Positions 25,399 through 60,428 of a stretch of DNA of 64,000 bases are shown one piece after another (position 1 is the first letter of the stretch; the number at the start of each line of letters is the position of its first letter). The stretch is from Candidatus Uhrbacteria bacterium (GTDB taxonomy: Bacteria > Patescibacteriota > Patescibacteriia > UBA9934 > GWF2-40-263). The notes under the pieces are model-generated. The model did not search any database. It was not told where the DNA came from and worked only from the letters and a program-made list of their open reading frames with translations. The position numbers and the translations under genes are program-made. The stretch spans positions 11,053-75,052 of the forward strand of contig JAERTI010000036.1 of NCBI GenBank assembly GCA_016844925.1. The letters run 5' to 3'.

Positions 25399-26076
25399 CT
25401 AGTGGCTCCGGACGATGTTGCCGACGAGCACGCGCTGCTCGCCGATCGGCTGGATCTCCTTCAGCTTCCGCTTGGCGAACCAGTCGATGTCCTTGTTGGT
25501 GCGTCCCGACAGGCTGATCAGGGGAATCCCGACCTCCGTGGAAGACTGGGCCGTCTTGATTGCCCTGTCGAGCAGGGCCGTACCAACACCATGCTCACGC
25601 CACTGGGGCCGCACGATCAGGTGCTGGATGTAGAAGTAGGCACCGCAGCGCCCCAGCTCCCGCACCACCGATGCCATCACCTGGGCTCCGACCTGTTCGT
25701 TGAGCTGATCCATGGCCAGCGGGCGTAGCTCGATCACCCCTACGGGCATCGGATGACCAGAGCTCACCACGAAGGCTACGAGGGTCTGAGCGCAGCGCAT
25801 GCGGAGAGCCTCGATGGTCTCGCGCTCGGCGCGCCGCTCGGTCCAGAGCTGCTGGACCACCCCCCCGCTGCACCAGGAACAGATCTCGTTCGCCGGCTTG
25901 CTGAGGAAGTCACGCTTGCATCCGCTGCAGCGCCACTGCTCGCCCCACGGCGCACCGCGGCGCCCCTCGACGATCATCTCCGCCAGACCCGGCACCAGAC
26001 GCTCGACACCCTGGCCCAGCCTGGCGACGTGCACTCGCTGCTCCACTCCTTCCCTCGCTACCGTGGCTACTTGCAT
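25399..26076 (-). CDS. GC-rich GNAT-family N-acetyltransferase with N-terminal Cys-rich (zinc-ribbon-like) region
   Basis: GNAT motif A (..YIQHLIVRPQWREHGVGTALLDRAI..); CSGCK...CSWCSGG; GGAGG-N5-ATG. Confidence 0.6.
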   Translation of the reverse strand: MQVATVAREGVEQRVHVARLGQGVERLVPGLAEMIVEGRRGAPWGEQWRCSGCKRDFLSKPANEICSWCSGGVVQQLWTERRAERETIEALRMRCAQTLVAFVVSSGHPMPVGVIELRPLAMDQLNEQVGAQVMASVVRELGRCGAYFYIQHLIVRPQWREHGVGTALLDRAIKTAQSSTEVGIPLISLSGRTNKDIDWFAKRKLKEIQPIGEQRVLVGNIVRSH

Positions 26077-30585: not shown

Positions 30586-30675
30586 TAAGCAAAAACGGGC
30601 CGAAAGGCCTGTTTTTTGTTGACGCACGTATGGGCGCATGCAAAGATGCCGGCGCACATTGAAAGTGGAGTACTC

Positions 30676-31590
30676 ATGTCAGCTACTGGCACCCAGGTCG
30701 AGCTCGGCCGCCAGATCATCGGTCGCATCTCTCAGGACCGACAAGGCCATATTTCCGAGCAGCAGCTCGAGGTGGCCAGGGCCTACCTGGTGGGCAACTA
30801 CCTCCCGCTGGGCGAGAACGACTTCCTCGCTGTCCCCACGCCGACGGGCAAGATCATCAGCCTGGTCGTGAACGAGAAGATGGAGCTCATGATCTGCATC
30901 GAGACCACCCCCGGCAACGAGTCGACCCGGCAGATGTGGCACGGCCCCCTCGGGAACCTGAAGCAACTGGAGACCACCCCCACCAGTGCGACCGAGTCGG
31001 ATAGCGACGATCCTGACAACGAACAGCTCCCTCTGCCACAGATGCCCCAGCGCTTCGAGACCGGTGGAGAGATCTTCGAAGTCCGCTGGACCGACCCACA
31101 GACCCCGGGACTCAACACGGTCTACTCGCACACACGCGGGGACGAGACGCTGATCGATGGCATGTACGTCATGATCACCGACCTGGCCGTGACGGACAAG
31201 CACCTCATCTTCACCTTCCACCTCGACGTCCTGGGCACGTCCACACAATGGCAGGTCAAGAAGACGCAGATCACCGTCGTGAATCGTGGAACGGGTGACC
31301 ACCGTATCGAGGAAGAGGGGGAGTTGATCCAGGCCCGATGGGCCTTGCAACCTCCGTTCAGGGAGCTGCACTCCACCGGCACACGCATTGTTGTGGTGAA
31401 GCGCCACCCCTACGGTGGCAAGCATGCCACGCTCGGCGGCGTCTCGATCTACACCAACCGTGGACACATCTTCCACCGACTCCGCGGTGACTTCTCCACG
31501 CTCCACTACGCCTGCGGCGCCCTCTGGACCTGGCGCCCCGCACCCGGCGGCGCGGTCCTGACGCGCTACGACCTCCCCAACAGCGACTGA
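30676..31590 (+). CDS. GC-rich hypothetical protein (305 aa)
   Basis: TTGACG-N17-AAAGAT placed immediately after the upstream host terminator T-run; AAGTGGAG-N5-ATG. The ORF track start at 30616 is probably too far upstream. Confidence 0.5.
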   Translation: MSATGTQVELGRQIIGRISQDRQGHISEQQLEVARAYLVGNYLPLGENDFLAVPTPTGKIISLVVNEKMELMICIETTPGNESTRQMWHGPLGNLKQLETTPTSATESDSDDPDNEQLPLPQMPQRFETGGEIFEVRWTDPQTPGLNTVYSHTRGDETLIDGMYVMITDLAVTDKHLIFTFHLDVLGTSTQWQVKKTQITVVNRGTGDHRIEEEGELIQARWALQPPFRELHSTGTRIVVVKRHPYGGKHATLGGVSIYTNRGHIFHRLRGDFSTLHYACGALWTWRPAPGGAVLTRYDLPNSD

Positions 31591-41617: not shown

Positions 41618-41689
41618 AGGCCCTTGACACCCTCTACAGCCATGCTAATGTCTTCAGCCAGCACAACCCGAACGAGAAGGAGACTTTCC

Positions 41690-42196
41690 ATGCGACTCGT
41701 GCTGCTGATGGCGCTGTGCGCCACGACCCTGACCGCCTGCGGCCCCGACATGGTGGGCGGCAACGGTGGTGACGACACCGACGCCCCCGAGACCGAGACC
41801 TACCAGATCTGGGCCGAGCGCCTGGACGAGCACGCGCAGGTGAACGCCGAGCTGCTCGCCACCTGGGACGATCCCAACGCGCACGGCTGGCACTTCCAGC
41901 AGCCGGACACCGAGGGCGACGTCGAGCTCGAGTTCAACGACGCGCAGATCGAAGGTGCGCTCGCGAGCAACCCGGACTTCGACCTCGAGAACCTGGAGTG
42001 CATCCGCTTCAACGTCACCTGGGGCGAGGGCTGCGAGCAGGACGGCTCCCAGAGCCACTGCAACTGGCTGAGCTACGGACAGGGCGACAGTGCCTACACC
42101 ACCGGCGACTACAGCTTCGACGCCCCCGGCGACTGGGACACCCCCTGGATCATCGACGTCGACTCCGGCAGCTCCCTCATCAGCTGCCGCAACTGA
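41690..42196 (+). CDS. GC-rich lipoprotein (lipobox LTAC; acidic, Cys-containing), single-gene module
   Basis: TTGACA-N16-TAATGT plus GAGAAGGAG-N9-ATG. The promoter abuts the comM stop and the terminator ends TTTTCTTTTTG. The ORF-track start at 41624 is upstream of the signal peptide. Confidence 0.55.
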   Translation: MRLVLLMALCATTLTACGPDMVGGNGGDDTDAPETETYQIWAERLDEHAQVNAELLATWDDPNAHGWHFQQPDTEGDVELEFNDAQIEGALASNPDFDLENLECIRFNVTWGEGCEQDGSQSHCNWLSYGQGDSAYTTGDYSFDAPGDWDTPWIIDVDSGSSLISCRN

Positions 42197-45988: not shown

Positions 45989-47980
45989 ATGACTATTATA
46001 CAGTACGCTATTGGCGCGGGGATCCTGGCACTCCTTTATGGAGGGCTTTTGATTCAGTGGATCCTCAAGCGCCCAGCAGGAGAGGGGAAGATGAAAGGAA
46101 TCGCTTTGGCGATCCAAGAGGGAGCATCTGCCTACATGGCACGCCAGTACAAAATGATCGCCGGTATCGGTGTCGTGATGTTCTGGATCCTGGGCATGGT
46201 CCTGGGCTGGAACCTGGCCTTCGGGTTCGCTGTCGGTGCCGTTCTTTCAGGACTCGCCGGCTACATCGGCATGAGCGTGTCCGTACGTGCGAACGTTCGC
46301 ACCACTGAGGCAGCAAAGAAGGGTCTCTCAGAGGCCATGGACGTTGCTGTCCGCGGAGGAGCCGTTACTGGACTCTTCGTTGTTGGTCTCGCCCTCTTGG
46401 GTGTTGCTGGATTCTACGCAGCAACAGGAGACACTCACGCCCTCATCGGACTGGGCTTCGGAGGATCTTTGATCTCCGTCTTCGCACGTCTTGGAGGAGG
46501 TATCTTCACCAAGGCTGCTGACGTAGGAGCTGACCTCGTTGGAAAAACTGAGGCTGGCATCCCTGAGGATGACCCTCGTAACCCAGCTGTGATTGCTGAC
46601 AACGTTGGTGACAACGTTGGTGACTGTGCTGGAATGGCAGCCGACCTCTTTGAGACGTACGCTGTGACATCTGTCGCCGCCATGCTCTTGGCAGCACTCA
46701 CCTTTACTGGAAACGAGACCGTTGTTCTCTATCCACTTGCCTTGGGGGCTGTTGCGATCGTTGCCTCCATCGTTGGAACACTCTTTATCAAGATTGGAAA
46801 AGATAAGAACATCATGAAGGCTCTCTATAAGGGCCTCATCGTCGCAGGTATTCTCGCAGCTGCCGGTTTCTACCCTGTGACTACTTCCATGCTCGCGGGC
46901 ATTGAAGGACTCAACGCCATGAACGTGTATTACTCCGCCCTTCTGGGACTCGGTGTAACCGCGCTCATGATCATGATCACCGAGTACTACACTGCTACCG
47001 AGTACAAGCCTGTACAGCGCTTGGCTGAGGCTTCAGAGTCTGGACACGGAACCAACATCATCGCTGGTCTTGCTCTGTCCATGAAGTCCACCGCGCTTCC
47101 TGTGATCACCATCGTGGTTGGTATCTTAGTTGCCTTTGAACTCGCTGGACTCTTTGGTATCGCCATCGCTGCCATGTCCATGCTTTCACTCACCGGTATC
47201 ATTGTTGCCATGGACGCCTTTGGTCCTATCACCGACAACGCTGGTGGAATTGCTGAAATGGCCGAGCTCCCAGAGAAGGTCCGTGAAATCACCGACGCAC
47301 TGGACGCTGTTGGAAATACCACAAAAGCTGTAACCAAGGCGTACGCCATCGGTTCTGCCGGACTCGCTGCTCTCGTACTCTTCGGAGACTATGTGCACGC
47401 TATCGAGGCAGAGGGTGTAAGCGTCGTCTTTGAACTCGACGATCCAAACGTCATCGCCGGACTCTTCCTCGGAGGTCTCGTAACCTACCTCTTCGGCGCT
47501 ATGGCCATGGAAGCTGTTGGAAAAGCGGCTGGTGCGGTTGTCGAAGAAGTACGCCGCCAGTTCCGTGAAATTCCTGGCATCATGAAAGGAACGGCTAAGC
47601 CAGAGTACGGTAAGGCTGTAGACCTCGTAACTGGTGCCGCAATCCGTTACATGTTTGTTCCATCTCTGCTCGCTGTGCTTGCTCCAGTTGTTGTGGGATT
47701 CACCCTCGGTGTAGAGGCTCTCGGTGGACTCCTTATCGGATCCATCATCACCGGACTCTTCGTGGCTATTTCCATGACCACCGGTGGAGGAGCTTGGGAC
47801 AATGCAAAGAAATACATTGAAGTTGGAAACTATGGCGGTAAGGGCTCCGACGCCCACAAGGCTGCCGTTACAGGTGACACCGTAGGCGATCCCTACAAAG
47901 ACACCGCTGGCCCAGCTATCAACCCAATGATCAAGATCTTGAACATTGTGGCCCTGCTGATTGTCGCACTAATCGTCTAA
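45989..47980 (+). CDS. hppA: Membrane-bound proton-translocating pyrophosphatase
   Basis: ..[24 protein letters not shown].. and ~16 TM; hairpin terminator at ~47990-48022. Confidence 0.9.
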
Positions 47981-48092
47981 ATAGACAGAACAAAAACACC
48001 CCGGCCTCGGCTGGGGTGTTTTGATTTTGGCAAAGAAAAAACCGCCGCGTTGCGTACGGGCGGAGATGTGCTTGTCAGGAGGTCGAGTTGTT

Positions 48093-48362
48093 TCAGTCCT
48101 CCATTACACTGAGGACGTAGCGAGTCTTCTCCTTTCCACCGAGAGCCTTCAGAAGCGTCTCGATGGCTTTCTTGTGGACCCACTTCTTGCCAATGAACTT
48201 CCCGCGGTCACGTGGGGGGATGTCCACCTCAATGACGACGGATCTGGTGCCGACGACTTCTCGGACGTCGATTTCGTCGGGATTGTCCACGAGGGACTTG
48301 GCGATCTTCCTGACCAGCCAAGTGCCGTGACGTTCTCCGCAACTGGGATCGTAGCTGGCCAT
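48093..48362 (-). CDS. KH-domain RNA-binding protein (YlqC/UPF0109-like), GC-rich, stand-alone
   Basis: ..IAKSLVDNPDEIDVREVVGTRSVVIEVDIPPRDRGKFIGKKWVHKKAIETLLKALGG..; AAAGGAGG-N5-ATG; terminator CCGCC..GGCGG+TTTTTTCTTTG on the minus strand at ~48035-48065. The ORF-track entry 48093..48770 is over-extended. Confidence 0.65.
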   Translation of the reverse strand: MASYDPSCGERHGTWLVRKIAKSLVDNPDEIDVREVVGTRSVVIEVDIPPRDRGKFIGKKWVHKKAIETLLKALGGKEKTRYVLSVMED

Positions 48363-48478
48363 GACGACCTCCTTTGTGACAAGTGTGGCCAGCATGGTGC
48401 AAACGCGGGGGGAAGTCAAGAAAGAAAAAAGCCGCCGGAGTGATTCCAGGCGGCAGCGGAGTTGTGTCCGCACGTTGT

Positions 48479-49879
48479 CTAGGGCCGATCGATCTGGGAG
48501 GCGAGCTCCTTGACCGCGGCCACGATAGGCTCCGTTCGGGGGTTGCCCGAGAGCTCTCGGTTGAAGCGCACGCGCTTGCGCGGCTTGTTGCGCTCGAGTA
48601 CACGCCCCATGGTCAGGAACTGCCAGGCGCGATCGCGATCCCTCTCGCTGATCCGCAGTCGCCTGAAGTGCGGCTGACACAGACGCTTGAAGTCCGCATC
48701 GCTGACCCACGAACCTGTGAACGTGTTCGAGACGCTCTGCTCGGGCTGCAGCACACCGAACACCAGCCATACCTGCACCGCCGCCAAGTTGACCCTACCG
48801 GTCACGTAGGCGCCGATCTTCAGCTGACGGTGATCGAACGGTGGCAACACCGGCGGCGTAGCCTTGGCCTTGCGGGCCGGCGGCGGCTTGGGTGCTGGCG
48901 GCGGATCCGGTTCCGGCTCCTCCTCGTCCATCTGGCTCATCTGCTGCTCGAGGCGTGCGAACTCGATGAACTCACGATCCTCTCGATGACGATGATTGGC
49001 ATCGATCAGGTCACTGCTAAACGAGACCACACAGTCCTTCAGATCTTGCCCCTTCTCCCGCATGGAGTAGATCGCCAGCAGGTCGCCGAGCGCCTTGAGC
49101 GAGAGCGAGGGAAGCAGTCGGTGGTGCTGAATGAGCCCCTGAGCACTGTCGCTATCGAGCTCACCATCGAGCATGACGAGCACGTCGTCCAGCCGGTGGG
49201 CGAAGTGATCCATCAACTTCACGGTGGTCTCAACCGTGAGCGTGCGGCGCACCGACAGGGCACTGATGGCCAGCAGCTTGCACATGGGCAACGGCTGTGT
49301 CAGCCGGCTCATGAGTGCCACAAGGCGCTCGACGACTCCACGCGTCAGCCCCTCAGTGAGCACCGCTCCCATGGGCGCGTCTTCGCGATCGATCACCAGC
49401 GGCTCACAGCGCATGTGCGTGCCGATGAGCCAGAACAGCTCGGCGGGACGCTCCCAGTAGGCACGCTGCTGCGGCACCTTCTCCTTGGACCGACTCGAGA
49501 CACCCGGCGTGAGTGCATCGTAGATGGCCTTAAGGCTGGGCACCACATCCTCAGCACTGGCGAAACGAACACCGTAGTGCCAGGCCATGCCCAGCAGGTG
49601 AATGTGTCGCGGTGCGCGCTTGCGCGTACGCCCCTGGTTGATGGCGTCCACGCACTGCGCGAACGCTGCTTCCCTGGAGAGCGTACTGTCCTGAGACATC
49701 TTCACGGACGTCAGCGCGTGCAGCGCCGCGTTCGTGGCCACCACGAGCTCCGGGATGATCCCGAAGTCGACATAGACGGCCGGCACCTGAGAAGATCGCA
49801 GATCCGCGAGCTCTCTGGTGGCCTGGGGAGCCTTCAAGCTCCCGAGCTCCATGAGCCCTGAATGGATCATCTCCATGAG
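48479..49879 (-). CDS. GC-rich hypothetical protein (~466 aa) with Pro-rich acidic segment
   Basis: TTGACA-N17-TAGTCT plus CAGGAGG-N7-ATG (MEMIHSGL..); terminator GCCGCC..GGCGGC+TTTTTTCTTTCTT. The + strand 492-aa ORF 48383..49861 is rejected as antisense. Confidence 0.5.
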   Translation of the reverse strand, partial: LMEMIHSGLMELGSLKAPQATRELADLRSSQVPAVYVDFGIIPELVVATNAALHALTSVKMSQDSTLSREAAFAQCVDAINQGRTRKRAPRHIHLLGMAWHYGVRFASAEDVVPSLKAIYDALTPGVSSRSKEKVPQQRAYWERPAELFWLIGTHMRCEPLVIDREDAPMGAVLTEGLTRGVVERLVALMSRLTQPLPMCKLLAISALSVRRTLTVETTVKLMDHFAHRLDDVLVMLDGELDSDSAQGLIQHHRLLPSLSLKALGDLLAIYSMREKGQDLKDCVVSFSSDLIDANHRHREDREFIEFARLEQQMSQMDEEEPEPDPPPAPKPPPARKAKATPPVLPPFDHRQLKIGAYVTGRVNLAAVQVWLVFGVLQPEQSVSNTFTGSWVSDADFKRLCQPHFRRLRISERDRDRAWQFLTMGRVLERNKPRKRVRFNRELSGNPRTEPIVAAVKELASQIDRP

Positions 49880-49939
49880 ATTTCCTCCTGTCTGGGTCGA
49901 TAGGATATCTAAACCAGACGGTAGACTAGCCATTCATTG

Positions 49940-49977
49940 ACATTCTGTCAATCCATTGTTAACGTGCGTCCTCGCGG
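49940..49977. promoter_or_regulatory. Back-to-back divergent promoters whose -35 hexamers overlap in the palindrome TTGACATTCTGTCAA
   Basis: Read directly; serves 48479..49879 (-) and 49978..51025 (+). Confidence 0.5.
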
Positions 49978-51025
49978 ATTTTCCCGGGAGAAAGGGAGGA
50001 AAAACGTGGTAAACCGCTCCTACGCTTACCCAGCGCATGATGCACTGCGGCTCGCGTGGATGGCCTATCAACCGCGCGGACCCGTCCATGAGGACGACCG
50101 AATCCTGTACCTCGCCGGCGAAGAGAACCTGGAGCTTCCAGGTTACCGCCAGCTCGGCTACAGACCTGACCAGCTCCTTACCTGCGAACATGACCCTCGC
50201 CGCTTCCCTCACGTCCTGGCCAACGGCCAGGGAGTGAATGTGGCTCAGGGCAACATCGCCGATGCCATCGCTGCTCTCCAACAGTGGGAGTGGCCACGCT
50301 TGCGTGGCGCCTGGCTGGACTTCGACGGCAACTCCCATACCTACACCGACGAGCTCCTCAAGCTCGCGGCCGTGCTCCCATCACCCCGGGGTTCTACCCT
50401 GGGTGTGACGAGCTTCGCCGCGCGTGACAACGAGGCTCTAGTGCAGGGAACGGTGAACACCTGCAAGTTCCTTTCCGGACTCGAGAACCTCAGTCAATTC
50501 TTGCGCGAGTACGGAACACAGCTCAGGCAGTACGAACATCTACTGCGCTTCATTCGCCACGGCGAGTCGACCCCTACTTCGCACTTCCAACGCGAGATGG
50601 GGCTCCTCTGGTGGCTGGTGCTCATGTTCGGCTCGGTAGACCTCCCCAAGGGCGAGCGCTACTACCGCACCGACGGCGCTTTCTTGGATCGCTCTGCCAG
50701 CATCCTTGACGGACTCACCCGTAAGGTGGAAGGTGCTCTGAGCACCGGCTCACAGAGTCGCATGGTCTGGGAATTCGATCCCGCCCTGCGCGACCTGCTC
50801 GCTGGACGAAAGGTCAGCGTGTGGATCACGCACCTGGAGCGCTATGCGTTCTGGTCGCAGAACCGCCAGCCCATGCGAACCTGGTTCGTAAAGGTTCAGC
50901 CGGTCATCGAGGGCACCTTCGCGCCCACGATGCAGGAACTGTTGGTGCAAGTTTGGAAACTCGCGTGCCGAAGCCCGCTCATCTACATCGATGAGCAGGG
51001 TGGACGCGTGCAAATCGACCCCTAG
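49978..51025 (+). CDS. GC-rich hypothetical protein (~349 aa), GTG start
   Basis: GGGAGG-N6-GTG; ORF-track start 49937. No confident domain. Confidence 0.45.
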
Positions 51026-51040
51026 TGTAAGGAGGAAGCG

Positions 51041-51793
51041 ATGAAGGTCGCAGAGATCCTGGAGAAGGGAGCGGAGTTCCTGATGGGACTCGCTCAGCTG
51101 GCACGGATGGTGCCGGAGCTGGATGCGCGCGTGAAGGCGCTGGAAGAGCAGAGCTCGCCGCCCGAGCAGGACGGTGACAAGGAGCCCGAGCAGGGCGACG
51201 GTGGCAGCGCGGATCCCGAGCCCGAGCAGGGCGGAGACGGTGGTGGCGACGGTGCCACGGACCCGAAGGCCATCACGGCCGACCCGGACACCTGGCCGCT
51301 GCGCGAGCCGGATCTGTCCAGCCGGAAGATCCTCAAGCGCAAGAAGTACGACGTCGACGACGTCGACCGTGCCATCGTCGCGGCCGTGCTCGCCACGGAC
51401 CCCGACGACGCCACCTGGAACGAGGACCGCAAGAAGATCGCCAAGGTCCGCCGACTGATCCTCAAGCAGATCGACGGTCTGCACGCCGCGCACTCGCGTG
51501 CCAACGGCAACGGTGGTGGCGGTGGGGCCGACCCGGTCTACACCCACGTGCCGGCCACCTGGCCCACCCGGCCGCCCAAGCAGGTGCATCCCGACGGCTA
51601 CCCGCCACGCGGAGCCCAGAACTACGACAGCGATCAGACGGACCTGGCCATCGCCCTGGCCGTGCGCAAGCACGCCCCGAACGACTGGTCCACGCTCCGC
51701 TTCGAGATCGCCAAGGCCCGCCAGCTCACCACCCAGCAGGTGGCCGAGCTCGGAGCCCGCATCACCCGCCTGGGACTGCTAGACGCGGCCTAG
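51041..51793 (+). CDS. GC-rich hypothetical protein (250 aa; coiled-coil N-terminus, Gly/Asp/Pro low-complexity middle)
   Basis: TAAGGAGG-N6-ATG 16 nt after the upstream stop (same operon); terminator CGACCGCTACGACAGCGGTCG+TTTTCTTTTAC. Confidence 0.5.
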   Translation: MKVAEILEKGAEFLMGLAQLARMVPELDARVKALEEQSSPPEQDGDKEPEQGDGGSADPEPEQGGDGGGDGATDPKAITADPDTWPLREPDLSSRKILKRKKYDVDDVDRAIVAAVLATDPDDATWNEDRKKIAKVRRLILKQIDGLHAAHSRANGNGGGGGADPVYTHVPATWPTRPPKQVHPDGYPPRGAQNYDSDQTDLAIALAVRKHAPNDWSTLRFEIAKARQLTTQQVAELGARITRLGLLDAA

Positions 51794-51935
51794 ACGGCCA
51801 ACTTCCGACCGCTACGACAGCGGTCGTTTTCTTTTACTTCACAGGGGAAACCTCTTGACAAAGCGCTTTTTTCCGCCTAGGCTCCTCCTCTGGTAACCTT
51901 TCGTTACCGTTCATTCCCTTTCAGGAGGAGAACCC

Positions 51936-53852
51936 ATGTCAGGACGTAGATCCCGCCGCATCAGAGACGGCGGGGTCAGCGATGATCTGCGCCGCTCCCG
52001 AAACTTCCTTGCGCTACTGGGTCAGCTGGTAGACGCCGAGCAAGACGGAGATTTCGAAGACCATCTGTTCGACCCTGGTGCGTTCCAGCCGACCAAGGGA
52101 AGCCTCAGGACGGCCCTGGACCTCAAGCCACCGAGCGCAAGCCCGGCGAGCAACGAACCCAAGCCTGTTCAGGAAACCGAGCCTGCCGCCGAGCCGGAGC
52201 CGACTCCGGAACCCGAAGTCAAGCCCGAGCCCATCGAGGTTTCGCCGCCCGACCTTCCCGAGGAGCCTGCTCCTGAGGAACCTGCTGCCGAGCCGGAGCT
52301 GGAGATCGCTGCTGAACAGGAGCCCGAGCCGACTCCGGAACCCGAAGTCAAGCCCGAGCCGACCGATGCCAGCGAAGATCGCGCCGCGATCATCCAGCTG
52401 CATCCGCCGGCGCCTGCTCCTGAGCCGGAAGCGGCACACGAGCCGGACATCGAGCCCGAGGTGGAAGCCGAGGGACAGGACGCCGCAGACGAGATCACGC
52501 TCCTGGAGCTGATCGCCTACGCGAACGCCTTGCACACGAGCCATCCGCTCGCCGAGGGGCTGGAGAGCATCTCGCTCCGACGCATCCTCCGTGGTTTGGA
52601 CTCCGCCGGTGTCCTGGTGGAAGCCGTGGGCACTGGATCCCTCACGCAGGCCAAGAGTCTGTTGTCCGCGCGTCACCGCACGCTCAAGACACTGCTCGAT
52701 ACGGCACAACAGGAAGCAACGGCCGCTGGTGCACCCGGAGACCTTCCGGATGAAGACCAGGGTCTGATCCGTCGACTCAACTCGCTCGTTGCGGGCCAGG
52801 CGGAGCAGCTTGAAGATGTGCACTCGCAGATCTACATCTCCGTGACAGAAGCACAGGTCATCACCGATGCTGTCGTCGATCTGGGAAACCAGGTCACCCA
52901 GCACGAGGATGCCTTGCTGGCACAGGTGGCGGTGGTCAAGGGCCTGGAAGCCCACATCACTCGTTACCACCTCTTGCGCGCGCACTCGATCGAGCAGCGT
53001 GCTGCCAACGACAAGAAGCGAGATGGCTTCGTCACGCAGATGCGCACCATCACGGCACGCATCGACACCTTGCACGCGCAGATGCGCAGTGCCATCACGG
53101 CGGCCGAGAGCAAACTCTCGGAACGCCAGACACTGAACCTCACCACGCGCAAGCCGCGTGATCGCGCCAAGCGTGGCATCACGCAGCTGCGCGCGCAGGT
53201 CAGCGCTGTGGAACTGCTCGGCGCCCGCGTGCCGGACGACCTCCTCGAACAGATCGAGGGTCTGATCCAGCCGTTGGACCTCTCCTTGCGTCTGTGGAAG
53301 CGGAGCACGCCTCCGCTGGAGACCCCGGAACTCTCGATGGAAGTCGAGGAGGCACTGAAGGAACTCGAGGACATCAAGGGTCGAGTCATCGCCCTGTTGA
53401 GTGCCCCAGAGGGACCGTTCCTGGGTCGTGAGACCCGTGAGCTGGAGCTGCGCAAGCTGCTGCTGATCACCATGGAGCTGGTCATCCCTGAGGGGAACGA
53501 GACCACAGGGAGCAAGAAGTCTGTCCCTCACCGAGGCTACAAGACGGCCCACTACCTCAACGCCCTCCTGCACCTGGGCTACATCACCCAGGCTGAAGTG
53601 GACCTTGAGGAAGAAGAAAAGAACTTGATGAACTGGGCAAAGTTGGAGCGCAAGCGAAAGACAAACCCCAAGCTCAAGTACGCCAAGGGCCATGGTCGTA
53701 GGACCAGAGGCATGAACTGGCACTCGTTCAACCTGACCCAGCACGGACACGATCTGGCACAGGAGCACTTGAACGAGTTGCGGGACCGCGCTGCCTTCAC
53801 GGTAGCCATCAAGCGCGCCTTCAAGCACGTGCTTCCCAAGCACTGGCAGTAG
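51936..53852 (+). CDS. GC-rich hypothetical coiled-coil protein (638 aa) with Pro/Glu-rich N-terminal region containing a perfect 35-bp direct DNA repeat
   Basis: TTGACA-N17-TAGGCT; CAGGAGG-N7-ATG; terminator CCCCACCATCACGCGGTGGGG+ATTTTTTG. Confidence 0.55.
   Translation: MSGRRSRRIRDGGVSDDLRRSRNFLALLGQLVDAEQDGDFEDHLFDPGAFQPTKGSLRTALDLKPPSASPASNEPKPVQETEPAAEPEPTPEPEVKPEPIEVSPPDLPEEPAPEEPAAEPELEIAAEQEPEPTPEPEVKPEPTDASEDRAAIIQLHPPAPAPEPEAAHEPDIEPEVEAEGQDAADEITLLELIAYANALHTSHPLAEGLESISLRRILRGLDSAGVLVEAVGTGSLTQAKSLLSARHRTLKTLLDTAQQEATAAGAPGDLPDEDQGLIRRLNSLVAGQAEQLEDVHSQIYISVTEAQVITDAVVDLGNQVTQHEDALLAQVAVVKGLEAHITRYHLLRAHSIEQRAANDKKRDGFVTQMRTITARIDTLHAQMRSAITAAESKLSERQTLNLTTRKPRDRAKRGITQLRAQVSAVELLGARVPDDLLEQIEGLIQPLDLSLRLWKRSTPPLETPELSMEVEEALKELEDIKGRVIALLSAPEGPFLGRETRELELRKLLLITMELVIPEGNETTGSKKSVPHRGYKTAHYLNALLHLGYITQAEVDLEEEEKNLMNWAKLERKRKTNPKLKYAKGHGRRTRGMNWHSFNLTQHGHDLAQEHLNELRDRAAFTVAIKRAFKHVLPKHWQ
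52197..52360 (+). repeat. Two copies of an exact 35-bp direct repeat (GAGCCGACTCCGGAACCCGAAGTCAAGCCCGAGCC) at 52197-52231 and 52326-52360, encoding EPTPEPEVKPEP
   Basis: Read directly. Confidence 0.8.
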
Positions 53853-53927
53853 AAGGTACCCCCACCATCACGCGGTGGGGATTTTTTGTTGTAAGAAAAA
53901 ACCGACCGCGTAACGGTCGGGGACGTA

Positions 53928-55160
53928 CTAGTCGGTGACAACCAGTCGTGCGTAGAGGCGGAGCAGGGTCCGCAGCTCTTCGATCTGCTCTTCGATCTGG
54001 GTGATCTCGGGGAGACCCTCGGTGCTGAACGAACCGACGAGCTCGGTACGCTGCCCATCCAGATCCTTCAGGTCCTTTGCGACGCCGTCACGCGCAGCGG
54101 TCAGCTCCGCGATCTCACGGTCCAGCTCCTCTCGACGAGTCGTGAGGCTGGCGATCTGCTCGTCCAGCCCCTGCGTCGCCTCAGCGAGCTTCTCGCTGGC
54201 CACGCGCTCACGCTGAGCGAGCAGCTCGTCGATCTCGCCCTGGAGCTCCTCCGGCGTCTTCACGCGCGGAGACGCGGGCGGAGCGGGAACCGGGGGCTCC
54301 GGCTCCTCCTCGGGCTCGGACTCCTTCTGCACCAGCTCCTGCCAGCGCTGACACTCCTCCGGCGTGACGAGATCGCCCGCCAGGTTGAAGTACGGCCGGA
54401 GGACCACCACGTACATGGACGGGTCGGTCCGTGAGCGCAGCTTGCCACGCGTCACGTAGAGCAATCCGAGCCCCTTGAGGTCACGAATCATGCTCTGGGG
54501 CGACGTGATGTCCGCATCCTTGAGAACCTCCATGAGCTCCCCGAAGGTGAACTCGCGGTGACCCTCTCGAGCAGAAAACTCGCAAAGGGCCTCGACGGCT
54601 CTCTGTCGACGATCGGATCGAATCACGACCTGATCGGCGTCCGGAGGCATGATCCACGGCCCGTCGGGCAGAGGGCTCGGCCAGATCACTTCCGAAGGAC
54701 CGAGATCACCACGGAGCTTGCCGTCATGACCAGGCTTCTGACCCTTGAGATCCTCGGGCTCCCACCGCTCGTTGTCGTTGGCCTTGCAGATGAAGACCAC
54801 GCCGGAGGTGTAGGGCACCACCGGAACACTCACGCTGCCGACCTCTTCGACGGTCCCGATGGCGTCGCGCTGCTTCTTGAGCACGCCGAGCATGGTTGAG
54901 CCAGGAGTCTTGGCGTGCCAACCGACGATCTCATCGCGAACATCCTGGGGCACCGGACGCTTCCGGTTGTCCCAGAACCACCGCGTCAGATCCTTGACGA
55001 TGGCGTTCTCCACCTTGCCCAAGCGCACCTCGCGCAGGGGCTCCTCGCTCGCTCCAGCTCCGACTGCGCCTTGCATGGCGCTGGCATCGGAACGCGTTAC
55101 CGTTCGTCCTCCGCGCCCTGGACCTTGTCCAGTCGCCTGAGGGGCTGCCTCATTCGGCAT
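53928..55160 (-). CDS. GC-rich hypothetical protein (410 aa) with central winged-helix-like segment and C-terminal coiled coil
   Basis: TTGACA-N17-TAGGGT plus GAGAGGAGG-N6-ATG; terminator CCGACCGTTACGCGGTCGG+TTTTTTCTTAC on the minus strand. Confidence 0.5.
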   Translation of the reverse strand: MPNEAAPQATGQGPGRGGRTVTRSDASAMQGAVGAGASEEPLREVRLGKVENAIVKDLTRWFWDNRKRPVPQDVRDEIVGWHAKTPGSTMLGVLKKQRDAIGTVEEVGSVSVPVVPYTSGVVFICKANDNERWEPEDLKGQKPGHDGKLRGDLGPSEVIWPSPLPDGPWIMPPDADQVVIRSDRRQRAVEALCEFSAREGHREFTFGELMEVLKDADITSPQSMIRDLKGLGLLYVTRGKLRSRTDPSMYVVVLRPYFNLAGDLVTPEECQRWQELVQKESEPEEEPEPPVPAPPASPRVKTPEELQGEIDELLAQRERVASEKLAEATQGLDEQIASLTTRREELDREIAELTAARDGVAKDLKDLDGQRTELVGSFSTEGLPEITQIEEQIEELRTLLRLYARLVVTD

Positions 55161-55204
55161 TGGTACCTCCTCTCAGTGAAAAAACTGAGGGTTGACCCTA
55201 CGTC

Positions 55205-55262
55205 TGCAGCGCCTGGATGTCAAGGTTTTAGCCTTGACAGAGCCCAAACGCACTGTTAACTT
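55205..55262. promoter_or_regulatory. Divergent back-to-back promoters (..GATGTCAAGG TTTTAG CCTTGACAGAG..) forming an imperfect inverted repeat
   Basis: Read directly. Confidence 0.45.
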
Positions 55263-55331
55263 GTGCCTCTTCTGGGCGTTTTACAAAAAACCCCAGATTT
55301 AGGCTCTTTCCCCCCTACCGGAGGTAGCTCC

Positions 55332-56873
55332 ATGACAACGACACCCACCTGGAGTGTTCCCGAGTATGAATACCGGCGTGAGCTGCTGGGTAAGCAGTTC
55401 CACAGGCTCTTCAAGCAGTTCCTCGACGCCAACCGAGGTGACCCGTCACCCAAGACGGCGTTCAAGAGACTGAGCACTTCGGCGGTCGAGGCATTCGCCC
55501 GCGAGCCCACCGATCCGCTCCCTTTCGCCAAGTACTTCCCCAACATCGAGGAAGTCACGGGGATCGACATCGATCGGCTCATGGTCATCGATGCCAAGCT
55601 CAAGCTCATCAAGTTGTGGGAGGATCGATTCCTCCTGCGACGACGTGACGAGCCCCTGGCCTTCCTACTGGACCAGTGCGACGACTTGCCCGAGAGGTTC
55701 GAGTTCGATCGGTACCCAACTCGCGATGAGATTGTGCTGGAAATCCAGGCACTCAGCGACGAGATCGGCTCGCCGATGGTCGCCCAGCAGATGTTCGTGA
55801 ACCAAGGAACGGTCACCAAGTGGTGGGCCGCCAACAAGCCGGGTCGACCGGCAGGCGAAACCCTGATCAAGTGCATCGCCCTGCTGACGGTGGGACCCGT
55901 GCGCTTCCACGGTGGGATCAACTCCCGCGATGACGTCCGATTCCGACTGGTCGTTCGCAACCTTCTGGGCTGCGACCCCCACGAGGTCCTGGGCGTCCGC
56001 AACCTCCCCGAGGCCATCGCGGCACTGGAGCTCGGTGACATCGGCGACATGATCTCTGTGGTGGAGAACCGCACCGGACTTGGTGCTACCACCATCAAGA
56101 ACCTGCGCAAGTGGAGCGCCGAGACCTCCAGCGGCAAGATGCCCGCTCAGAGCATGATGAAGATCATCCGCTTGCTCCTGGCGCGCACCCACCCTGACAA
56201 GCTGACGGACTTCGACGCGGCCGGGAAGCTCTTCCTGGACGCGAAGAACCTCGGCTGGGGCGGCACACCGCTGTTCTGGCCCAAGGTAGTCCAGCAGCCG
56301 AAGCAGCCCGCACCGGAGCCTGAGCCCGTTGTGGCACAGGAGCCGGAGGAACCTGCACCGGAGCCGGCCATGGGACGCAACACCCCCAGTTCGCTCGAGC
56401 TCCTGGAGTTCAAGCGCGCAGTGGTGACGCTGGAACATCTGACCGAGCTCTTTCCTGGACTCCTCGACCAGCTCCCTGAGGCCCTCAAGCCCAAGGTGGC
56501 AGTCGATCCGGAACCGGAGCCCGAACCAGAGCCGGCCGTCGCCGCTCCAGAACCGCCCACCAATGGCGTCACGTCTGAGGTGGACCTGGAGAAGTTGGGG
56601 CCCAAGTGGTTCATCGCGCTGGTGGAGAGCGACAGGCGCCCCACGGCCGGAGAGCTCTCGCAGATCTCCGCGATCCTGCGTGCGTACCCCAAGCTGATCG
56701 GCCGCCTTCTGGGGCTGCCGGTCGAACAACGACGACGTTTCTTCCGAGGCGTTGATGGCTCCATGCTCGCAACCGCCGAGCGACTGCAGGCCGTCGACGC
56801 AACGGAACCCGAACGCTTCCTGAATTTCCTCGACCACGAACTCGAGGACCGGTTCAAGGCCGCAGGAGGCTGA
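55332..56873 (+). CDS. GC-rich hypothetical protein (~514 aa) with a Cro/C1-type helix-turn-helix segment (..SPMVAQQMFVNQGTVTKWWAANKPGRP..) and Pro/Glu-rich linkers
   Basis: TTGACA-N17-TAACTT; CCGGAGG-N8-ATG (MTTTPTW..). The ORF-track start at 55263 is upstream of the RBS. Confidence 0.5.
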   Translation: MTTTPTWSVPEYEYRRELLGKQFHRLFKQFLDANRGDPSPKTAFKRLSTSAVEAFAREPTDPLPFAKYFPNIEEVTGIDIDRLMVIDAKLKLIKLWEDRFLLRRRDEPLAFLLDQCDDLPERFEFDRYPTRDEIVLEIQALSDEIGSPMVAQQMFVNQGTVTKWWAANKPGRPAGETLIKCIALLTVGPVRFHGGINSRDDVRFRLVVRNLLGCDPHEVLGVRNLPEAIAALELGDIGDMISVVENRTGLGATTIKNLRKWSAETSSGKMPAQSMMKIIRLLLARTHPDKLTDFDAAGKLFLDAKNLGWGGTPLFWPKVVQQPKQPAPEPEPVVAQEPEEPAPEPAMGRNTPSSLELLEFKRAVVTLEHLTELFPGLLDQLPEALKPKVAVDPEPEPEPEPAVAAPEPPTNGVTSEVDLEKLGPKWFIALVESDRRPTAGELSQISAILRAYPKLIGRLLGLPVEQRRRFFRGVDGSMLATAERLQAVDATEPERFLNFLDHELEDRFKAAGG

Positions 56874-56996
56874 CACGCGGGTGAGGCACCCCTCGCCCCT
56901 TTTCTCAAGCAACTCATTCATCCTGAATGTGTTGCTGGAGCTAAAGACACGCTCCTTTCATTGTCATCTACCACTTCCCACACTGGAGAGAAGCCC

Positions 56997-59021
56997 ATGG
57001 GCGCTCGAAAGCTGAAGATCGCAGGGGGCGGCATCGACCGTTCCGCACTGCGCAAGAACACGGACGCGTACCTACGCTGGGTGGACATGTTCATCGAGCT
57101 GGCCAGCAACATCGAAGACGCTGGCGGCAACGAGGTCACCATCAAGTTCATGCGCATCAAGCGCAAGCTCTGTGTGCTGGTCTGGGGCAACGGCCCCGGC
57201 GTCATCAACTGGACTCCCTTCGTGAGCCTGCTGAACAGCCCCAGCGAGTCGGACCTGACCAAGCGTGGCAAGATGGGCTCGGGTTCCAAGTCCCCCCTGC
57301 GCCACGGCCAGGAGGTGACCTACCAGAGCCTGCGCCGCGGCGCCTCGCGCCTGCAGCAGCTCAGCTACACCGCCGAGCTGCTGGAGACCATTCTCCACGA
57401 CGGCGTGGAGCCCGAGCTGCTGGAGCTGGAGATCCCGGCCGGCTGCCCCCTGACCGGGAGCGGTCTGCTGGTGACCATCACGGGCATCGGCAAGGGGCCG
57501 TCGCAGTACGTCGACCCCAAGGAGGACCGCTCGTTCAAGCGGGCCATGGAGGACTACTCCACCCTGGCCTCGCGTTCGCTCGCGCACATGACCACGTTCA
57601 TCGACGAGCGTGGGCACAAGCACCAGGTCAAGCCCCGTGAGCTCGACGGCGAGCTCATCGAGCTGACCGGGGAGATCCCCGGTCTGGGCCCCATCGGCGC
57701 GCACGTGTCGGTGGCCAGCAAGCCCAACCGCCAGGAGCGCCTCTCGGTGTGGTCGCACGACCGCGCCTGCACCATGGGAGAGTTCCTGCGCCAGGCGGCG
57801 CGCATCCCGTCCAACCGTGATCTGGCCCTGCGCCTGCTCAAGGTCCTGGACGTCCCGCTCGTGCTCGGCGAGGTGAGCTGCAAGGGCTTCGGTCCGCACC
57901 ACGTCCGTGGGGCCAACACCGGCTTCATGCAGAGCCTGTACAACGACGAGGAGACCGTCTTCCTGTTCCTGCAGTGGCTGCAGGACAACCTGGTGCCCAA
58001 GGTGCTCGCCATCATGGGAGCTCCCGAGCCGGAGCAGGAGACCACCGACTCGGACCTGTGCCGAGAGCTGGTGCAGCGCTTCCAGCAGATCGGCGGCGCT
58101 CCCGAGGACGACACGGACACGCACGACCTGAACACCACGCAGCTGTCCACCGACCCCACGGTCATCACCCTGGAGTGCGGAGACGACTGCTGGATCACGC
58201 TCGGAGGAGCGCCTGAGGGTGCCTCTGTGCGGTGGGATGCCAAGAGCAGCGGAGGCTCGCTCAACCGCACCAGCGGCAAGCGCGTGCACTTCACCGCTGG
58301 CACGGACCGTGGCAAGTACAGGCTGTACATCCACGTGAACAAGGTCGTCCACGCGGTGCAGGTGGAGCTGTTCACCCGCCTGACCCCCAAGCTGCGTCAG
58401 CGCACCCGCACGGGCGCGCCCGACCAGATCATCACCTGGACCCTGGACCACACCGGTCACATCAAGGGCAAGGTGCAGTGGCGTCTGAACCCGCAAGACG
58501 CGGGAACGCTGGAGATCGCCGAGGACACCTTCTCGTGCAGGCACCGCCTGCCGGGCGTGACCACCAAGCCCATCGAGATCTTCCCCACGGGGAAGCTCGA
58601 CGACGGCACGAACATGAACCTCAAGGGCATGGTCATGGTGGCCCCCCGTTCGACCAAGCCGAGGGAATCCACGCCGCGCAAGCGGTCGGCTGTGGAGTGG
58701 ACGCTCGACGGCCACACCTACGCCCTGAAGATGTTCCGCGGCGGAGCGTCCAAGGACCTCGAGTCCTGCATGGTCGACCCGCACGACGAGGAGCCCTACA
58801 CCACGATCTTCATCAACCTGGCGCATCCCAAGTTCCAGGGCTCGGCCACCACGCGTCAGCGGGTGGCCGAGGTGGAGATCGCGGACGCCATCTCGGGTGA
58901 CGAGATGCGTCGCAAGCAGACGAACCTGCGCACCCGCAGGACGCTCAGCGCCGAGGACATGCTCCAGACCGTGCGCGAGCGTGCCAACGAGCTCTTCGTC
59001 CAGCTGATCCAGCTGGGCTAG
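56997..59021 (+). CDS. GC-rich ~675-aa protein with an N-terminal GHKL (Bergerat-fold, Hsp90/MutL/MORC-like) ATPase-like region and a large uncharacterised C-terminal region
   Basis: N-box-like ..FIELASNIEDAGGNEV.., G1-like ..VWGNGPGV.., G2-like ..GKMGSGSKS.. in the canonical order and spacing; GGAGAG-N6-ATG; terminator CCCCGACAACGCAACGTCGGGG+TTTTTTC at 59045-59080. The assignment is motif-based inference only. Confidence 0.5.
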   Translation: MGARKLKIAGGGIDRSALRKNTDAYLRWVDMFIELASNIEDAGGNEVTIKFMRIKRKLCVLVWGNGPGVINWTPFVSLLNSPSESDLTKRGKMGSGSKSPLRHGQEVTYQSLRRGASRLQQLSYTAELLETILHDGVEPELLELEIPAGCPLTGSGLLVTITGIGKGPSQYVDPKEDRSFKRAMEDYSTLASRSLAHMTTFIDERGHKHQVKPRELDGELIELTGEIPGLGPIGAHVSVASKPNRQERLSVWSHDRACTMGEFLRQAARIPSNRDLALRLLKVLDVPLVLGEVSCKGFGPHHVRGANTGFMQSLYNDEETVFLFLQWLQDNLVPKVLAIMGAPEPEQETTDSDLCRELVQRFQQIGGAPEDDTDTHDLNTTQLSTDPTVITLECGDDCWITLGGAPEGASVRWDAKSSGGSLNRTSGKRVHFTAGTDRGKYRLYIHVNKVVHAVQVELFTRLTPKLRQRTRTGAPDQIITWTLDHTGHIKGKVQWRLNPQDAGTLEIAEDTFSCRHRLPGVTTKPIEIFPTGKLDDGTNMNLKGMVMVAPRSTKPRESTPRKRSAVEWTLDGHTYALKMFRGGASKDLESCMVDPHDEEPYTTIFINLAHPKFQGSATTRQRVAEVEIADAISGDEMRRKQTNLRTRRTLSAEDMLQTVRERANELFVQLIQLG

Positions 59022-59135
59022 AGCCGGTCGAGCCACAAAGCACGACCAACCCCCGACAACGCAACGTCGGGGTTTTTTCATTGACAAAAACACCCAGGAC
59101 AGCTACCCTCCGGGCGTTATTTACTCCCATTTATT

Positions 59136-60428
59136 ATGCCAAACGTAGAAATCGAGAACTTGGAAAAAAACCAAGTAAAGCTCACATTTACCGTGAGTGC
59201 TGAAGAAGCTAAGCCCTACATGGAAGAAGCGGCGAAGGCCATCTCTCAGCAGACCAAGATCCCGGGCTTCCGCCCAGGAAAGGCTGATTATGAAGTGGTT
59301 AAGCAGCGCGTTGGAGAAATGAAGCTTTTAGAAGAGGCTCTTCAGAGCATCATCCGCAAGTCTTTCGTTTCAGCCGTGCTCGAGCATGACATCGACACTG
59401 TGGGCTCCCCACAAATTGACGTCGGTAAGCTCGCCCCAGGAAACGACATCGAGTTCACCGCTGTGGTAACAAAGATGCCACAAACCACTGAGCTCGCTGA
59501 CTTTGCAAAACTCACCGTGAAGAAGCAGACACCTGAGGTGAAGGACGAAGAGATCGACACTGCCCTGCGTGACGTACAGCGCATGCAGACCAAAGAAGTG
59601 CGTGGTACAGCCGAGGAGGCCGTTACCATCGAGGACAAGGTGGTCGTATCCATGAACATGAAGCTCGAGGGCGTGCCTGTGGAAGGTGGTCAGTCACCAA
59701 ACCACGCCATCTACTTGAACGAGGACTACTACATCCCAGGTCTGAAGGACCAGGTGGTCGGGCTCAAGGAAGGTGAGGAGAAGACCTTTACCCTCCCGTT
59801 CCCAGAGAACCACGTGCAGGACATGCTTGCAGGAAAGGACGTTGAGTTTGAGGTAAAAGTGAAGGAACTCTTCCACCTGCAGCCACCAGAACTCGATGAC
59901 GAGTTCGCTAAGGGCCTTGGCATGAAGGACATGGCCATGCTCCGCGAGACCGTTCAGAAAAACTTGCTCACAGAAAAAGAAGGAGAGGCTCGTGCAAGTG
60001 AAGAACGTGAGATGCTTGAGGCTGTGGCAAAGAAATCAAAGTTTGAAGACATTCCAGATCTGCTCATCAACGAGGAGATCCACAAGATGATCGAGGAGCT
60101 CAAGCGCGCTGTGGAGTCACAGGGGCTCGAGTTCGACACGTACCTGCAGAACATGAACAAGACCCTGCCGCAGATGAAGATCGACTTCTCTCCGCAGGCC
60201 CTCATGCGCATCAAGGTCGCCTTGGCTATGCGCGCTGTGGCGAAACAGGAAAAGATCGCTGTGGAGGAAGCAGAGCTCGATGCAGAGCTCGACCGCATTG
60301 CTGAGCAGTACAAAGAAAATAAAGAAGCACAGCAGCAAATCTTCTCCCCACAGCACCGCGACTACATGGAGCAGATCCTGCGCAACCGCAAGGTCATCGA
60401 GTTCCTCCGTGGCGCTATGGTCAAATAG
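59136..60428 (+). CDS. tig: Trigger factor
   Basis: Full-length trigger factor architecture (..GFRPGKAD.. ribosome-binding signature-like, PPIase, C-terminal arm). TTGACA promoter immediately after the upstream terminator. Confidence 0.85.
   Translation: MPNVEIENLEKNQVKLTFTVSAEEAKPYMEEAAKAISQQTKIPGFRPGKADYEVVKQRVGEMKLLEEALQSIIRKSFVSAVLEHDIDTVGSPQIDVGKLAPGNDIEFTAVVTKMPQTTELADFAKLTVKKQTPEVKDEEIDTALRDVQRMQTKEVRGTAEEAVTIEDKVVVSMNMKLEGVPVEGGQSPNHAIYLNEDYYIPGLKDQVVGLKEGEEKTFTLPFPENHVQDMLAGKDVEFEVKVKELFHLQPPELDDEFAKGLGMKDMAMLRETVQKNLLTEKEGEARASEEREMLEAVAKKSKFEDIPDLLINEEIHKMIEELKRAVESQGLEFDTYLQNMNKTLPQMKIDFSPQALMRIKVALAMRAVAKQEKIAVEEAELDAELDRIAEQYKENKEAQQQIFSPQHRDYMEQILRNRKVIEFLRGAMVK

Follow-up and report, generated by a model that had tools for sequence, protein, structure and literature searches.

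A stretch of 64,000 nucleotides from Candidatus Uhrbacteria (contig JAERTI010000036.1, positions 11,053 to 75,052), hereafter called the window, contains a GC-rich block situated between the genes hppA and tig. The block is composed of seven genes without a family name, designated p2 to p8, and a gene for a KhpA-type KH protein (Table 1). The GC content of positions 48400-59030 reaches 0.637, with a plateau of 0.61-0.65 and sharp edges at hppA and tig, compared with 0.523 in the remaining 53 kb of the window; the block, first pointed out in an earlier note made from the sequence, has thus been confirmed. Gene starts have been refined on the basis of Shine-Dalgarno sites and homolog alignments. 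The block frames are characterized by a GC content of 0.74-0.92 at the third codon position (GC3) and of about 0.44 at the second (GC2). Long open reading frames (ORFs) lying opposite the block genes have their high GC at codon position 1 and are therefore regarded as shadow ORFs. Such shadow ORFs of GC-rich DNA mislead gene callers into the wrong strand. At the related locus L005 (940-3006, minus strand), a single p8 homolog is found by tblastn, and the public gene call gives two plus-strand ORFs of 306 and 216 residues.

The proteins p2 to p8, scanned individually against Pfam, PHROGs, PADLOC and NCBIfam, returned nothing beyond coiled-coil noise, and the previous statement that no component belongs to a nameable family holds for these seven, which match neither a named family nor a defence model. 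tRNA and Rfam scans revealed no element within the block (the nearest tRNA lies at 25.3 kb), and no account of the p2-p8 cluster was found in literature searches. As has been established, the products of the cluster include a GHKL protein of the MORC/MutL type, a member of a new methyltransferase-fold family and several proteins that probably bind DNA.

A search with p8 identified three relatives. The same seven genes, in the same order, are present between hppA-KH and tig-suhB in the Parcubacteria metagenome-assembled genome (MAG) L002/L009 and in the sequencing-run assembly L003. Searches with p3 and the p8 family led to further loci (L005/L025, L006, L008, L010/L024, L011, L012/L015, L013, L014, L016, L021-L023, L027, L029 and L030); several of the recovered loci are labelled Candidatus Uhrbacteria, and others are Parcubacteria MAGs. 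In every locus long enough to include both flanks, the block genes have been placed between hppA and tig by tblastn and HMM mapping. Gene content and order at this site are kept in at least 12 independent contigs or MAGs, so that the same gene order recurs in other genomes and the homologous loci do not carry unrelated gene content. Two block arrangements have been found among the relatives, differing by inversion of p2-p3-p4 as one unit. The identity to the window proteins amounts to 81-94% for hppA, 53-77% for tig and 22-67% for the block proteins, with p3 the highest and p5 the lowest within the block (p5 38% to L002). These comparisons show that the cluster is ancient, has been passed on vertically and is specific to the lineage of Candidatus Uhrbacteria and close Parcubacteria, in which its place between hppA and tig is fixed.

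The p8 protein consists of (i) an N-terminal GHKL (Bergerat) ATPase domain; (ii) a middle region; (iii) Ig-like beta domains at residues ~395-590; (iv) a C-terminal helical pair. The p8 profile (full HMMER scan) collected 146 representatives, about 90 of them full-length (630-720 residues), the remaining matches being long proteins that repeatedly match only positions ~383-450; a homolog search with the 61-sequence p8 alignment brought one marginal addition. HATPase_c_3 (PF13589) is matched by 53 of the 61 aligned members (best E 1.3e-14), and Ig-like, PKD or Big_2 models are matched by a few, while p8 of the window taken alone gives no Pfam match at E<=0.1. Compared with the PDB, the family profile finds MORC2 first (E 8e-14), then MORC3, MORC4, MLH1, MutL, PMS2, HtpG, TopoVI-B and Hsp90, in alignments spanning only the first ~125 (maximally ~146) positions. 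Motif I (N box, E-x3-N-x2-D) is intact in p8 as ELASNIEDAG, and the form E/Q-x3-N-x2-D is found in nearly all 61 members. Motif III (G2 box, G-x-x-G-x-G) is likewise intact (KRGKMGSGSK). At motif II (G1 box, D-x-G-x-G), whose Asp binds adenine in GHKL proteins, p8 has WGNGPG and its closest relatives GNGxG, and most of the family possesses DDGxG or DNGxG. A conserved KPNR is also present in p8 (K254, in the numbering of the 686-residue ORF starting at 56961). The GHKL motifs formerly assigned to p8 have thereby been borne out at the family level, and from its profile matches the p8 family is classified as an undescribed GHKL family of the HATPase_c_3/MORC-MutL type. An AlphaFold2 model of p8 (four sequences) has a predicted local distance difference test score (pLDDT) of 38. 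A sacsin-GHKL match of p8 (E 0.043) has not been relied on, and the matches of the single p8 and p3 sequences to PDB entries of Pcc1 and glyoxylate reductase are considered chance matches.

The most conserved block protein is p3. Its family of 19 members matches no methyltransferase or other plausible Pfam model and no NCBIfam model; a VHL match in one member (E 0.015) is at chance level. The AlphaFold2 model of p3 (19 sequences) has a pLDDT of 87.8 and exhibits the predicted Rossmann-like seven-stranded fold of a class I S-adenosylmethionine (SAM)-dependent methyltransferase; Foldseek agreed on the methyltransferase fold and ranked generic methyltransferases ahead of Trm1. The p3 protein is the founder of a new methyltransferase-fold family without a Pfam model. 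The glycine-rich motif I (E/D-x-G-x-G-x-G) is absent and its place is taken by a conserved Y-L-[AP]-[GA]-x-E-N-L-E (YLAGEENLE in the window). The acidic beta2 residue E61 is nearly invariant and L104-D105-F-D-G108 is conserved; by eye, this LDFDG can be placed opposite the D-P-F-G motif of Trm1, as a candidate for the catalytic motif IV. The identity of p3 to Trm1 (tRNA guanine26 N2-dimethyltransferase) is 9-11%. In contrast to Trm1 and class I SAM methyltransferases, p3 has its SAM loop replaced, and it is accompanied in the genome by genes for DNA-binding proteins and a GHKL ATPase instead of tRNA genes.

Directly behind p3 lies p4, in every locus, L026 included. The p4 protein is built from two copies of a helical unit of ~60 residues ending in R-x-L-T-x-Q-Q-V-A, each preceded by a TWPxR motif, and its gene contains an internal DNA repeat at 51435/51705. 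The p4 profile scored against transcription activator-like effector (TALE) repeats in the PDB (E 1.7e-9); this is an artefact, since an 18-residue 'GLTPEQV' motif is summed over many repeats, and single stretches all have E>280.

The p5 protein begins with a disordered N-terminal third that is acidic and rich in Pro and Glu, continues as a long coiled coil and ends in a globular part. The exact DNA repeats reported for it earlier are indeed present, as two copies of 35 nt (52197-52231 and 52326-52360) which encode EPTPEPEVKPEP twice within the Pro/Glu-rich disordered region. In p6, an N-terminal domain precedes a winged-helix-like unit closed by the conserved VPPEC motif, and an acidic linker then leads to a coiled coil at the C-terminus; the winged-helix-like/VPPEC unit is duplicated in L005 and L012. 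The p7 protein possesses helix-turn-helix (HTH)-like units in its N-terminal 300 residues, an acidic Pro/Glu linker and a helical C-terminal domain. The p7 profile aligns with the XRE-type HTH protein 3bs3 at positions 137-191 (E 0.016), and p7 homologs show weak HTH_26, HTH_3 and HTH_Tnp_1 matches; XRE-type signals are thus present for the Cro/C1-like HTH attributed to p7 before, at a weak level of support. The p2 protein is helical in its N-terminal part, which an acidic Pro/Glu linker joins to a conserved domain of ~110 residues at the C-terminus, and it has no match in Pfam, PHROGs, PADLOC, NCBIfam or PDB. Its start, an ATG at 49876 with an AGGAGG site, agrees with the N-termini of homologs. 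No paralogy among p2, p5 and p6 was detected by hhalign. Several candidate matches have been set aside: DUF5753 for a p2 homolog (E 0.019) and TrmB for one p6 homolog (E 0.016, weak) were not relied on, and the p5 and p6 matches to SMC, Rad50, JetC, LmuB, PbeC, KfrA and HBL are only compositional coiled-coil matches.

The acidic Pro/Glu-rich linkers, found in four of the seven proteins (p2, p5, p6 and p7), are encoded by similar GAGCC/CCGGA-rich DNA at 48900-48930, 52150-52480, 54290-54330 and 56280-56530; most short direct and inverted repeats inside the block can be traced to the likeness of this DNA. The N-termini of p5 and p6 are Arg/Gly-rich and are followed by a conserved Asp-containing motif (p5 residues 1-30, 51936-52025, RRSRRIRDGG; p6 residues 10-35, 55057-55130 on the minus strand, GRGGRTVTR), in both cases kept in orthologs. 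Seen by eye, these N-termini could represent a shared docking peptide.

The identification of the KH gene product as an RNA-binding protein stands, as it passes the Pfam threshold of KH_KhpA-B (PF13083; E 3.6e-12, 46.5 bits against a cut-off of 32.1); the match to NCBIfam PRK00468 (E 6e-19) remains below the model cut-off. The gene is situated beside hppA in L002, L005, L006, L010, L015, L021 and L031, and is absent beside the block in L008, L011, L013, L016, L027, L029 and L030. It is unusual only in its raised GC3 and fast divergence (35-51% identity). The KH protein is probably an ordinary housekeeping KhpA neighbour of the block and not an obligate member, so that its former inclusion in a defence-like system has been given up.

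Both divergent spacers of the block carry paired -35-like hexamers (Table 1). The arrangement ATTGAC(A)-N3-TGTCAAT is kept in the p2/p3 spacer of L002, L006, L021 and L022, and (T/A/C)GTCAAG ... CTTGACA, with variable spacing, in the p6/p7 spacer of L002, L005, L006, L013 and L016, among relatives with proteins only 25-67% identical. Four of the five TTGACA/TGTCAA hexamers of the 10.6-kb block fall in these two spacers. Their conservation supports the paired hexamers as putative divergent-transcription elements, and the fixed 3-nt spacing of TTGACATTCTGTCAA would also suit an operator. Of the divergent promoters proposed earlier, the conserved hexamers have thus been recovered in both spacers, whereas a consensus promoter scan found no site there passing the -10 criteria.

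Table 1. Features of the block, its flanks and other genes mentioned in the text (positions in the window)
Feature	Position	Strand	Description
hppA	45989-47980		flank of the block
KH gene	48093-48362	-	89 aa, KhpA-type RNA-binding
p2	48479-49876	-	465 aa; longest ORF reaches 49933
palindrome TTGACATTCTGTCAA	49937-49951		p2/p3 spacer; face-to-face -35-like hexamers; unique in the 64-kb window
p3	50006-51025	+	339 aa
p4	51041-51793	+	250 aa
terminator-like hairpin after p4	51806-51826	+	8-bp stem, 6 GC pairs, T-run
p5	51936-53852	+	638 aa
terminator-like hairpin, p5/p6	53860-53880	+	convergent with the next
terminator-like hairpin, p5/p6	53920-53902	-	convergent with the preceding
p6	53928-55160	-	410 aa
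TGTCAAGGTTTTAGCCTTGACA	55218-55239		p6/p7 spacer; back-to-back -35-like hexamers; unique in the 64-kb window
p7	55332-56873	+	513 aa
terminator-like hairpin after p7			weak
p8	56997-59021	+	674 aa
terminator-like hairpin after p8	59051-59072	+	upstream of tig; 7-bp stem, 6 GC pairs, T-run
tig	59136-60428		flank of the block
yidD/rnpA	~61.5-62.3 kb		
dnaA	62451-63863		
high-GC3 gene	14980-15642	+	no Pfam family
high-GC3 gene	18100-19287	-	no Pfam family
high-GC3 gene	20618-21883	+	no Pfam family
high-GC3 gene	22392-23306	+	no Pfam family
high-GC3 gene	25399-26076		GNAT-type acetyltransferase
high-GC3 gene	30616-31590	+	no Pfam family
high-GC3 gene	41624-42196	+	no Pfam family

Two separable sub-modules can be distinguished: A, formed by p2-p3-p4, the invertible unit, and B, formed by p5-p6-p7-p8, each centred on a divergent spacer in which TTGACA hexamers are conserved. 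Most loci spanning hppA-tig have the two linked, and beyond this site they are separable. In L016 a p2-like gene and p5-p8 lie between hppA and tig without p3, p4 and KH, and in L026 (1297-5814) p3-p4 occur without sub-module B, directly upstream of miaB-miaA. At the unrelated locus L020, a p8-like and a p3-like gene are located ~2 kb apart among otherwise unrelated neighbours, and hhalign found no homology of p2, p5 and p6 to the neighbours of this p8-like gene. The recurrence of p8 together with p3 at L020 is the best hint of functional coupling.

Distant p8-family members are found elsewhere with other ORFans (L018/L019; L033, Candidatus Andersenbacteria). In L033 (10001-17161), ORFans surround the p8-family gene, an RVT_1 reverse transcriptase is found 1.8 kb away and an AAA_3/AAA_5 ATPase is encoded nearby; this neighbourhood looks more like a variable, conflict-type setting. 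In L018 (9291-12459), a MiaB-like radical-SAM gene and alaS are found close to the p8-like gene. The contexts of L026 and L018 could reflect a link to tRNA modification or a coincidence of compact genomes.

Selection on the block has been assessed by the ratio of nonsynonymous to synonymous substitution rates (dN/dS) in two pairs. Between the window and the near strain L001 (tig 99% identical), dN/dS is 0.011 for tig (dS 0.34), 0.04 for suhB (dS 0.67), 0.39 for p8 (dS 0.11) and 0.19 for the C-terminal half of p7 (dS 0.28). Between L005 and L012/L015, where dS is near saturation, the values are 0.08 for p3, 0.15 for KH, 0.18 for p2, 0.19 for p8, 0.22 for p7, 0.29 for p6 and 0.44 for p4, with 0.06 for hppA. 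The block genes thus range from 0.08 to 0.44, in comparison with 0.01-0.06 for the core genes tig, suhB and hppA, and no value exceeds 1; this range indicates that the block genes are real. Judged by these ratios, the block is under purifying selection 5-20 times weaker than that on core genes. Its protein sequences change 5-20 times faster than those of core genes. The p8 comparison with L001 (933-2957) stands out in that its dS of 0.11 is below those of tig and suhB, yet its protein divergence exceeds theirs tenfold. The low dS may be due to codon or GC bias at synonymous sites (p8 GC3 0.92) or to local recombination.

A natural deletion has been found in L031 (2442-3824) and L032 (3012-3868), two contigs of different assemblies with 100% identity along 2 kb. 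What they retain between tig and hppA is only the last 65 codons of p3, an intact p4 and KH; in comparison with L005, the intact locus nearest to them, ~10 kb comprising p8, p7, p6, p5, p2 and most of p3 is gone. The loss of ~10 kb in this lineage indicates that the block is non-essential, in line with the accessory nature suggested for it before.

For this ancient vertical cluster, the best explanation overall, put forward tentatively, is that its products act jointly on nucleic acid as a paraMORC-like module; as a best guess, held with low confidence, this would be a methyl-mark-linked surveillance or organisation module. The p8 protein would serve as a dimerising GHKL clamp with Ig-like and helical extensions, thereby constituting the mechanical component. 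The p5, p6 and p7 proteins, through their winged HTH (wHTH) or HTH units, coiled coils and acidic linkers, would tether p8 to DNA and, by way of the conserved palindromes, would also regulate the operons. A methyl mark, telling the module where or where not to act, would be written or read by p3, the Trm1-like protein with a methyltransferase fold, together with p4, its constant companion. Candidate outputs are the silencing or exclusion of foreign DNA, or the organisation of the origin-proximal chromosome.

In conflict systems, GHKL ATPases of the MORC and paraMORC type are found in association with methylases (Iyer, Abhiman and Aravind 2008, PMC2292703). The block resembles these systems in (i) the N-terminal HATPase_c_3-type GHKL domain of p8, with MORC2/3/4 and then MLH1, MutL and PMS2 as the best solved relatives; (ii) a C-terminal extension of its own, as in paraMORC families; (iii) a methyltransferase-fold gene linked to p8 at two different loci, as in MORC/paraMORC operons. 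There are also differences. The neighbourhood includes neither a superfamily II helicase nor a nuclease of the restriction-endonuclease fold, HNH or VSR type, the p8 extension consists of Ig-like domains, and the motif II Asp is lost in the window subclade. The block is also vertical within one clade of the Candidate Phyla Radiation (CPR), and not patchy or driven by horizontal gene transfer. The MORC S5 motif (GhXhhpXXRhl), which belongs to the S5-fold transducer domain following GHKL in such proteins, was not identified in p8, for which the AlphaFold2 model has the low pLDDT given above and the profile alignments reach ~125-146 positions only. Because helicase and nuclease are lacking, the distribution is not patchy and motif II is degenerate, the block is regarded as a variant possibly working like MORC/paraMORC systems and not as a member of them.

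Several points weigh against this joint action on nucleic acid. With Gly in place of the motif II Asp in p8, the use of ATP is uncertain. In p3 the glycine-rich SAM loop is lacking, and as its fold most closely matches that of a tRNA methyltransferase, the predicted enzyme could act on RNA. Sub-modules A and B can occur apart and so may not make up one system. Neither a nuclease nor a helicase domain was detected in any block protein or homolog set, and there is no match to a PADLOC system. The strict vertical inheritance at a single site is unlike restriction-modification (R-M), defence and prokaryotic MORC systems, which show a patchy distribution (PMC2292703).

The 'defence-like' character formerly attributed to the block has accordingly found no positive evidence, given the absence of a PADLOC system match and of a recognisable nuclease or helicase. 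In PADLOC-DB 2.0 nothing was matched by p2, p3, p4, p7 and p8, and the matches of p6 and, marginally, p5 have E>=4.5e-4. With the models concerned (Lamassu LmuB, Wadjet JetC and PbeC; E 5e-4 to 0.08), only the coiled coils are alike, over 60-100 compositional residues, and the ATPase heads, nucleases and signature proteins of those systems are missing from the block. An unlikely but more far-reaching version of the paraMORC-like reading is that of a CPR-branch GHKL genome-surveillance or chromatin-like machine. It would combine an Ig-bearing MORC-like clamp, a Trm1-like methyltransferase and four to five (w)HTH/coiled-coil proteins without canonical nuclease or helicase, and would be origin-adjacent, vertical through all Uhrbacteria history and evolving at conflict-like speed.

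The same observations may be read in terms of the foreign origin of the block. The earlier note considered that its position between conserved core genes with intact terminators 'fits an insertion', and the recent arrival of an accessory or defence island from a GC-rich donor would be in keeping with a GC content 11 points above the flanks, sharp boundaries at hppA and tig, and ORFan proteins. Nevertheless, every relative found has the block at this one hppA-tig site, even where protein identity falls to 22-35%, and the divergence of the block is deeper than that of the flanking genes. Across genomes its GC content varies between 0.46 and 0.66, tracking that of the host flanks and lying 1-12 points above it in all relatives; this scaling makes a recent import from a GC-rich donor unlikely. 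Other high-GC3 genes (0.77-0.97) are scattered in the window at 15-23, 30.6 and 41.6 kb and, among those scanned, only the GNAT-type acetyltransferase has a Pfam family (Table 1). As scattered ORFans share the high GC3, the composition marks a class of weakly constrained, lineage-specific genes and not foreign origin. One high-GC3 ORFan outside the block has a lipoprotein-like N-terminus. Pfam, PHROGs and NCBIfam scans of the block revealed no integrase, transposase, capsid or terminase family, exactly as noted before, and no flanking direct or inverted repeats are able to serve as att sites. An island would be expected to occur in only part of the close relatives and to be cleanly missing from the rest, whereas the sole absence, in L031/L032, is an internal deletion. 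A recent insertion is thereby effectively excluded. A domesticated or decaying remnant of a mobile element (a CPR plasmid or virus), integrated in the Uhrbacteria ancestor and having no joint present function, could explain the atypical composition, the ORFan nature of all seven proteins and the dispensability of the block, and the XRE-like HTH and divergent promoter modules are typical of mobile-element control regions. Such a remnant is improbable, as all genes are intact with dN/dS <0.45 over very deep divergence, neither integrase nor att repeat nor tRNA accompanies them, and no relatives were found in INPHARED phages or PLSDB plasmids (p3, p8) or in IMG/VR (p3 only); the tracking of host GC and the high GC3 of other window ORFans also oppose it.

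Two explanations concern instead how the genes belong together. In one, the block is a chromosome-organisation or regulatory module with a cell-biological role, in which a MORC-like clamp and coiled-coil DNA-binding proteins would act at the origin-proximal region with p3 as an accessory modifier. The block ends 3.4 kb upstream of dnaA, and the order tig-...-yidD-rnpA-(rpmH)-dnaA-dnaN is the same in L001 and L016. Purely vertical inheritance, the joining of (w)HTH-like units with coiled coils in three proteins and the compaction of DNA by eukaryotic MORCs (PMC2292703) are consistent with this role. We consider it rather unlikely, because two assemblies represent a lineage that has lost the block by deletion, the block proteins evolve far more rapidly than core genes, and the p8 family occurs in distant CPR genomes at other loci with other partners; moreover, proximity to dnaA may merely reflect hppA-tig synteny. 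In the other explanation, two unrelated neighbours are present, A (the Trm1-like p3, p4 and perhaps KH) modifying tRNA or rRNA, and B (p5-p8) doing something else. This arrangement seems quite doubtful in view of the second association of p3 and p8 homologs at L020 and the adjacency of A and B in most loci spanning hppA-tig (L016 being without p3-p4), and Foldseek places generic methyltransferases, not Trm1, first, with KH missing beside the block in many relatives.

Composition carries a warning, namely that in these genomes high GC or GC3 marks weakly constrained lineage-specific genes and not recent horizontal transfer. CPR bacteria have tiny genomes, in which conserved clusters of hypothetical genes are common. 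Seven unnamed genes, clustered in 10.6 kb and maintained at a single site throughout a class-level clade, represent a considerable investment for genomes of this size. The cluster provides an entry point to lineage-specific CPR biology through two enzyme-like anchors, the MORC-type GHKL protein and the new methyltransferase-fold family, and also offers conserved cis elements, a natural deletion lineage and an unexplained compositional signature. If the MORC-methyltransferase logic is true, bacterial MORC-like systems would extend beyond mobile R-M contexts.

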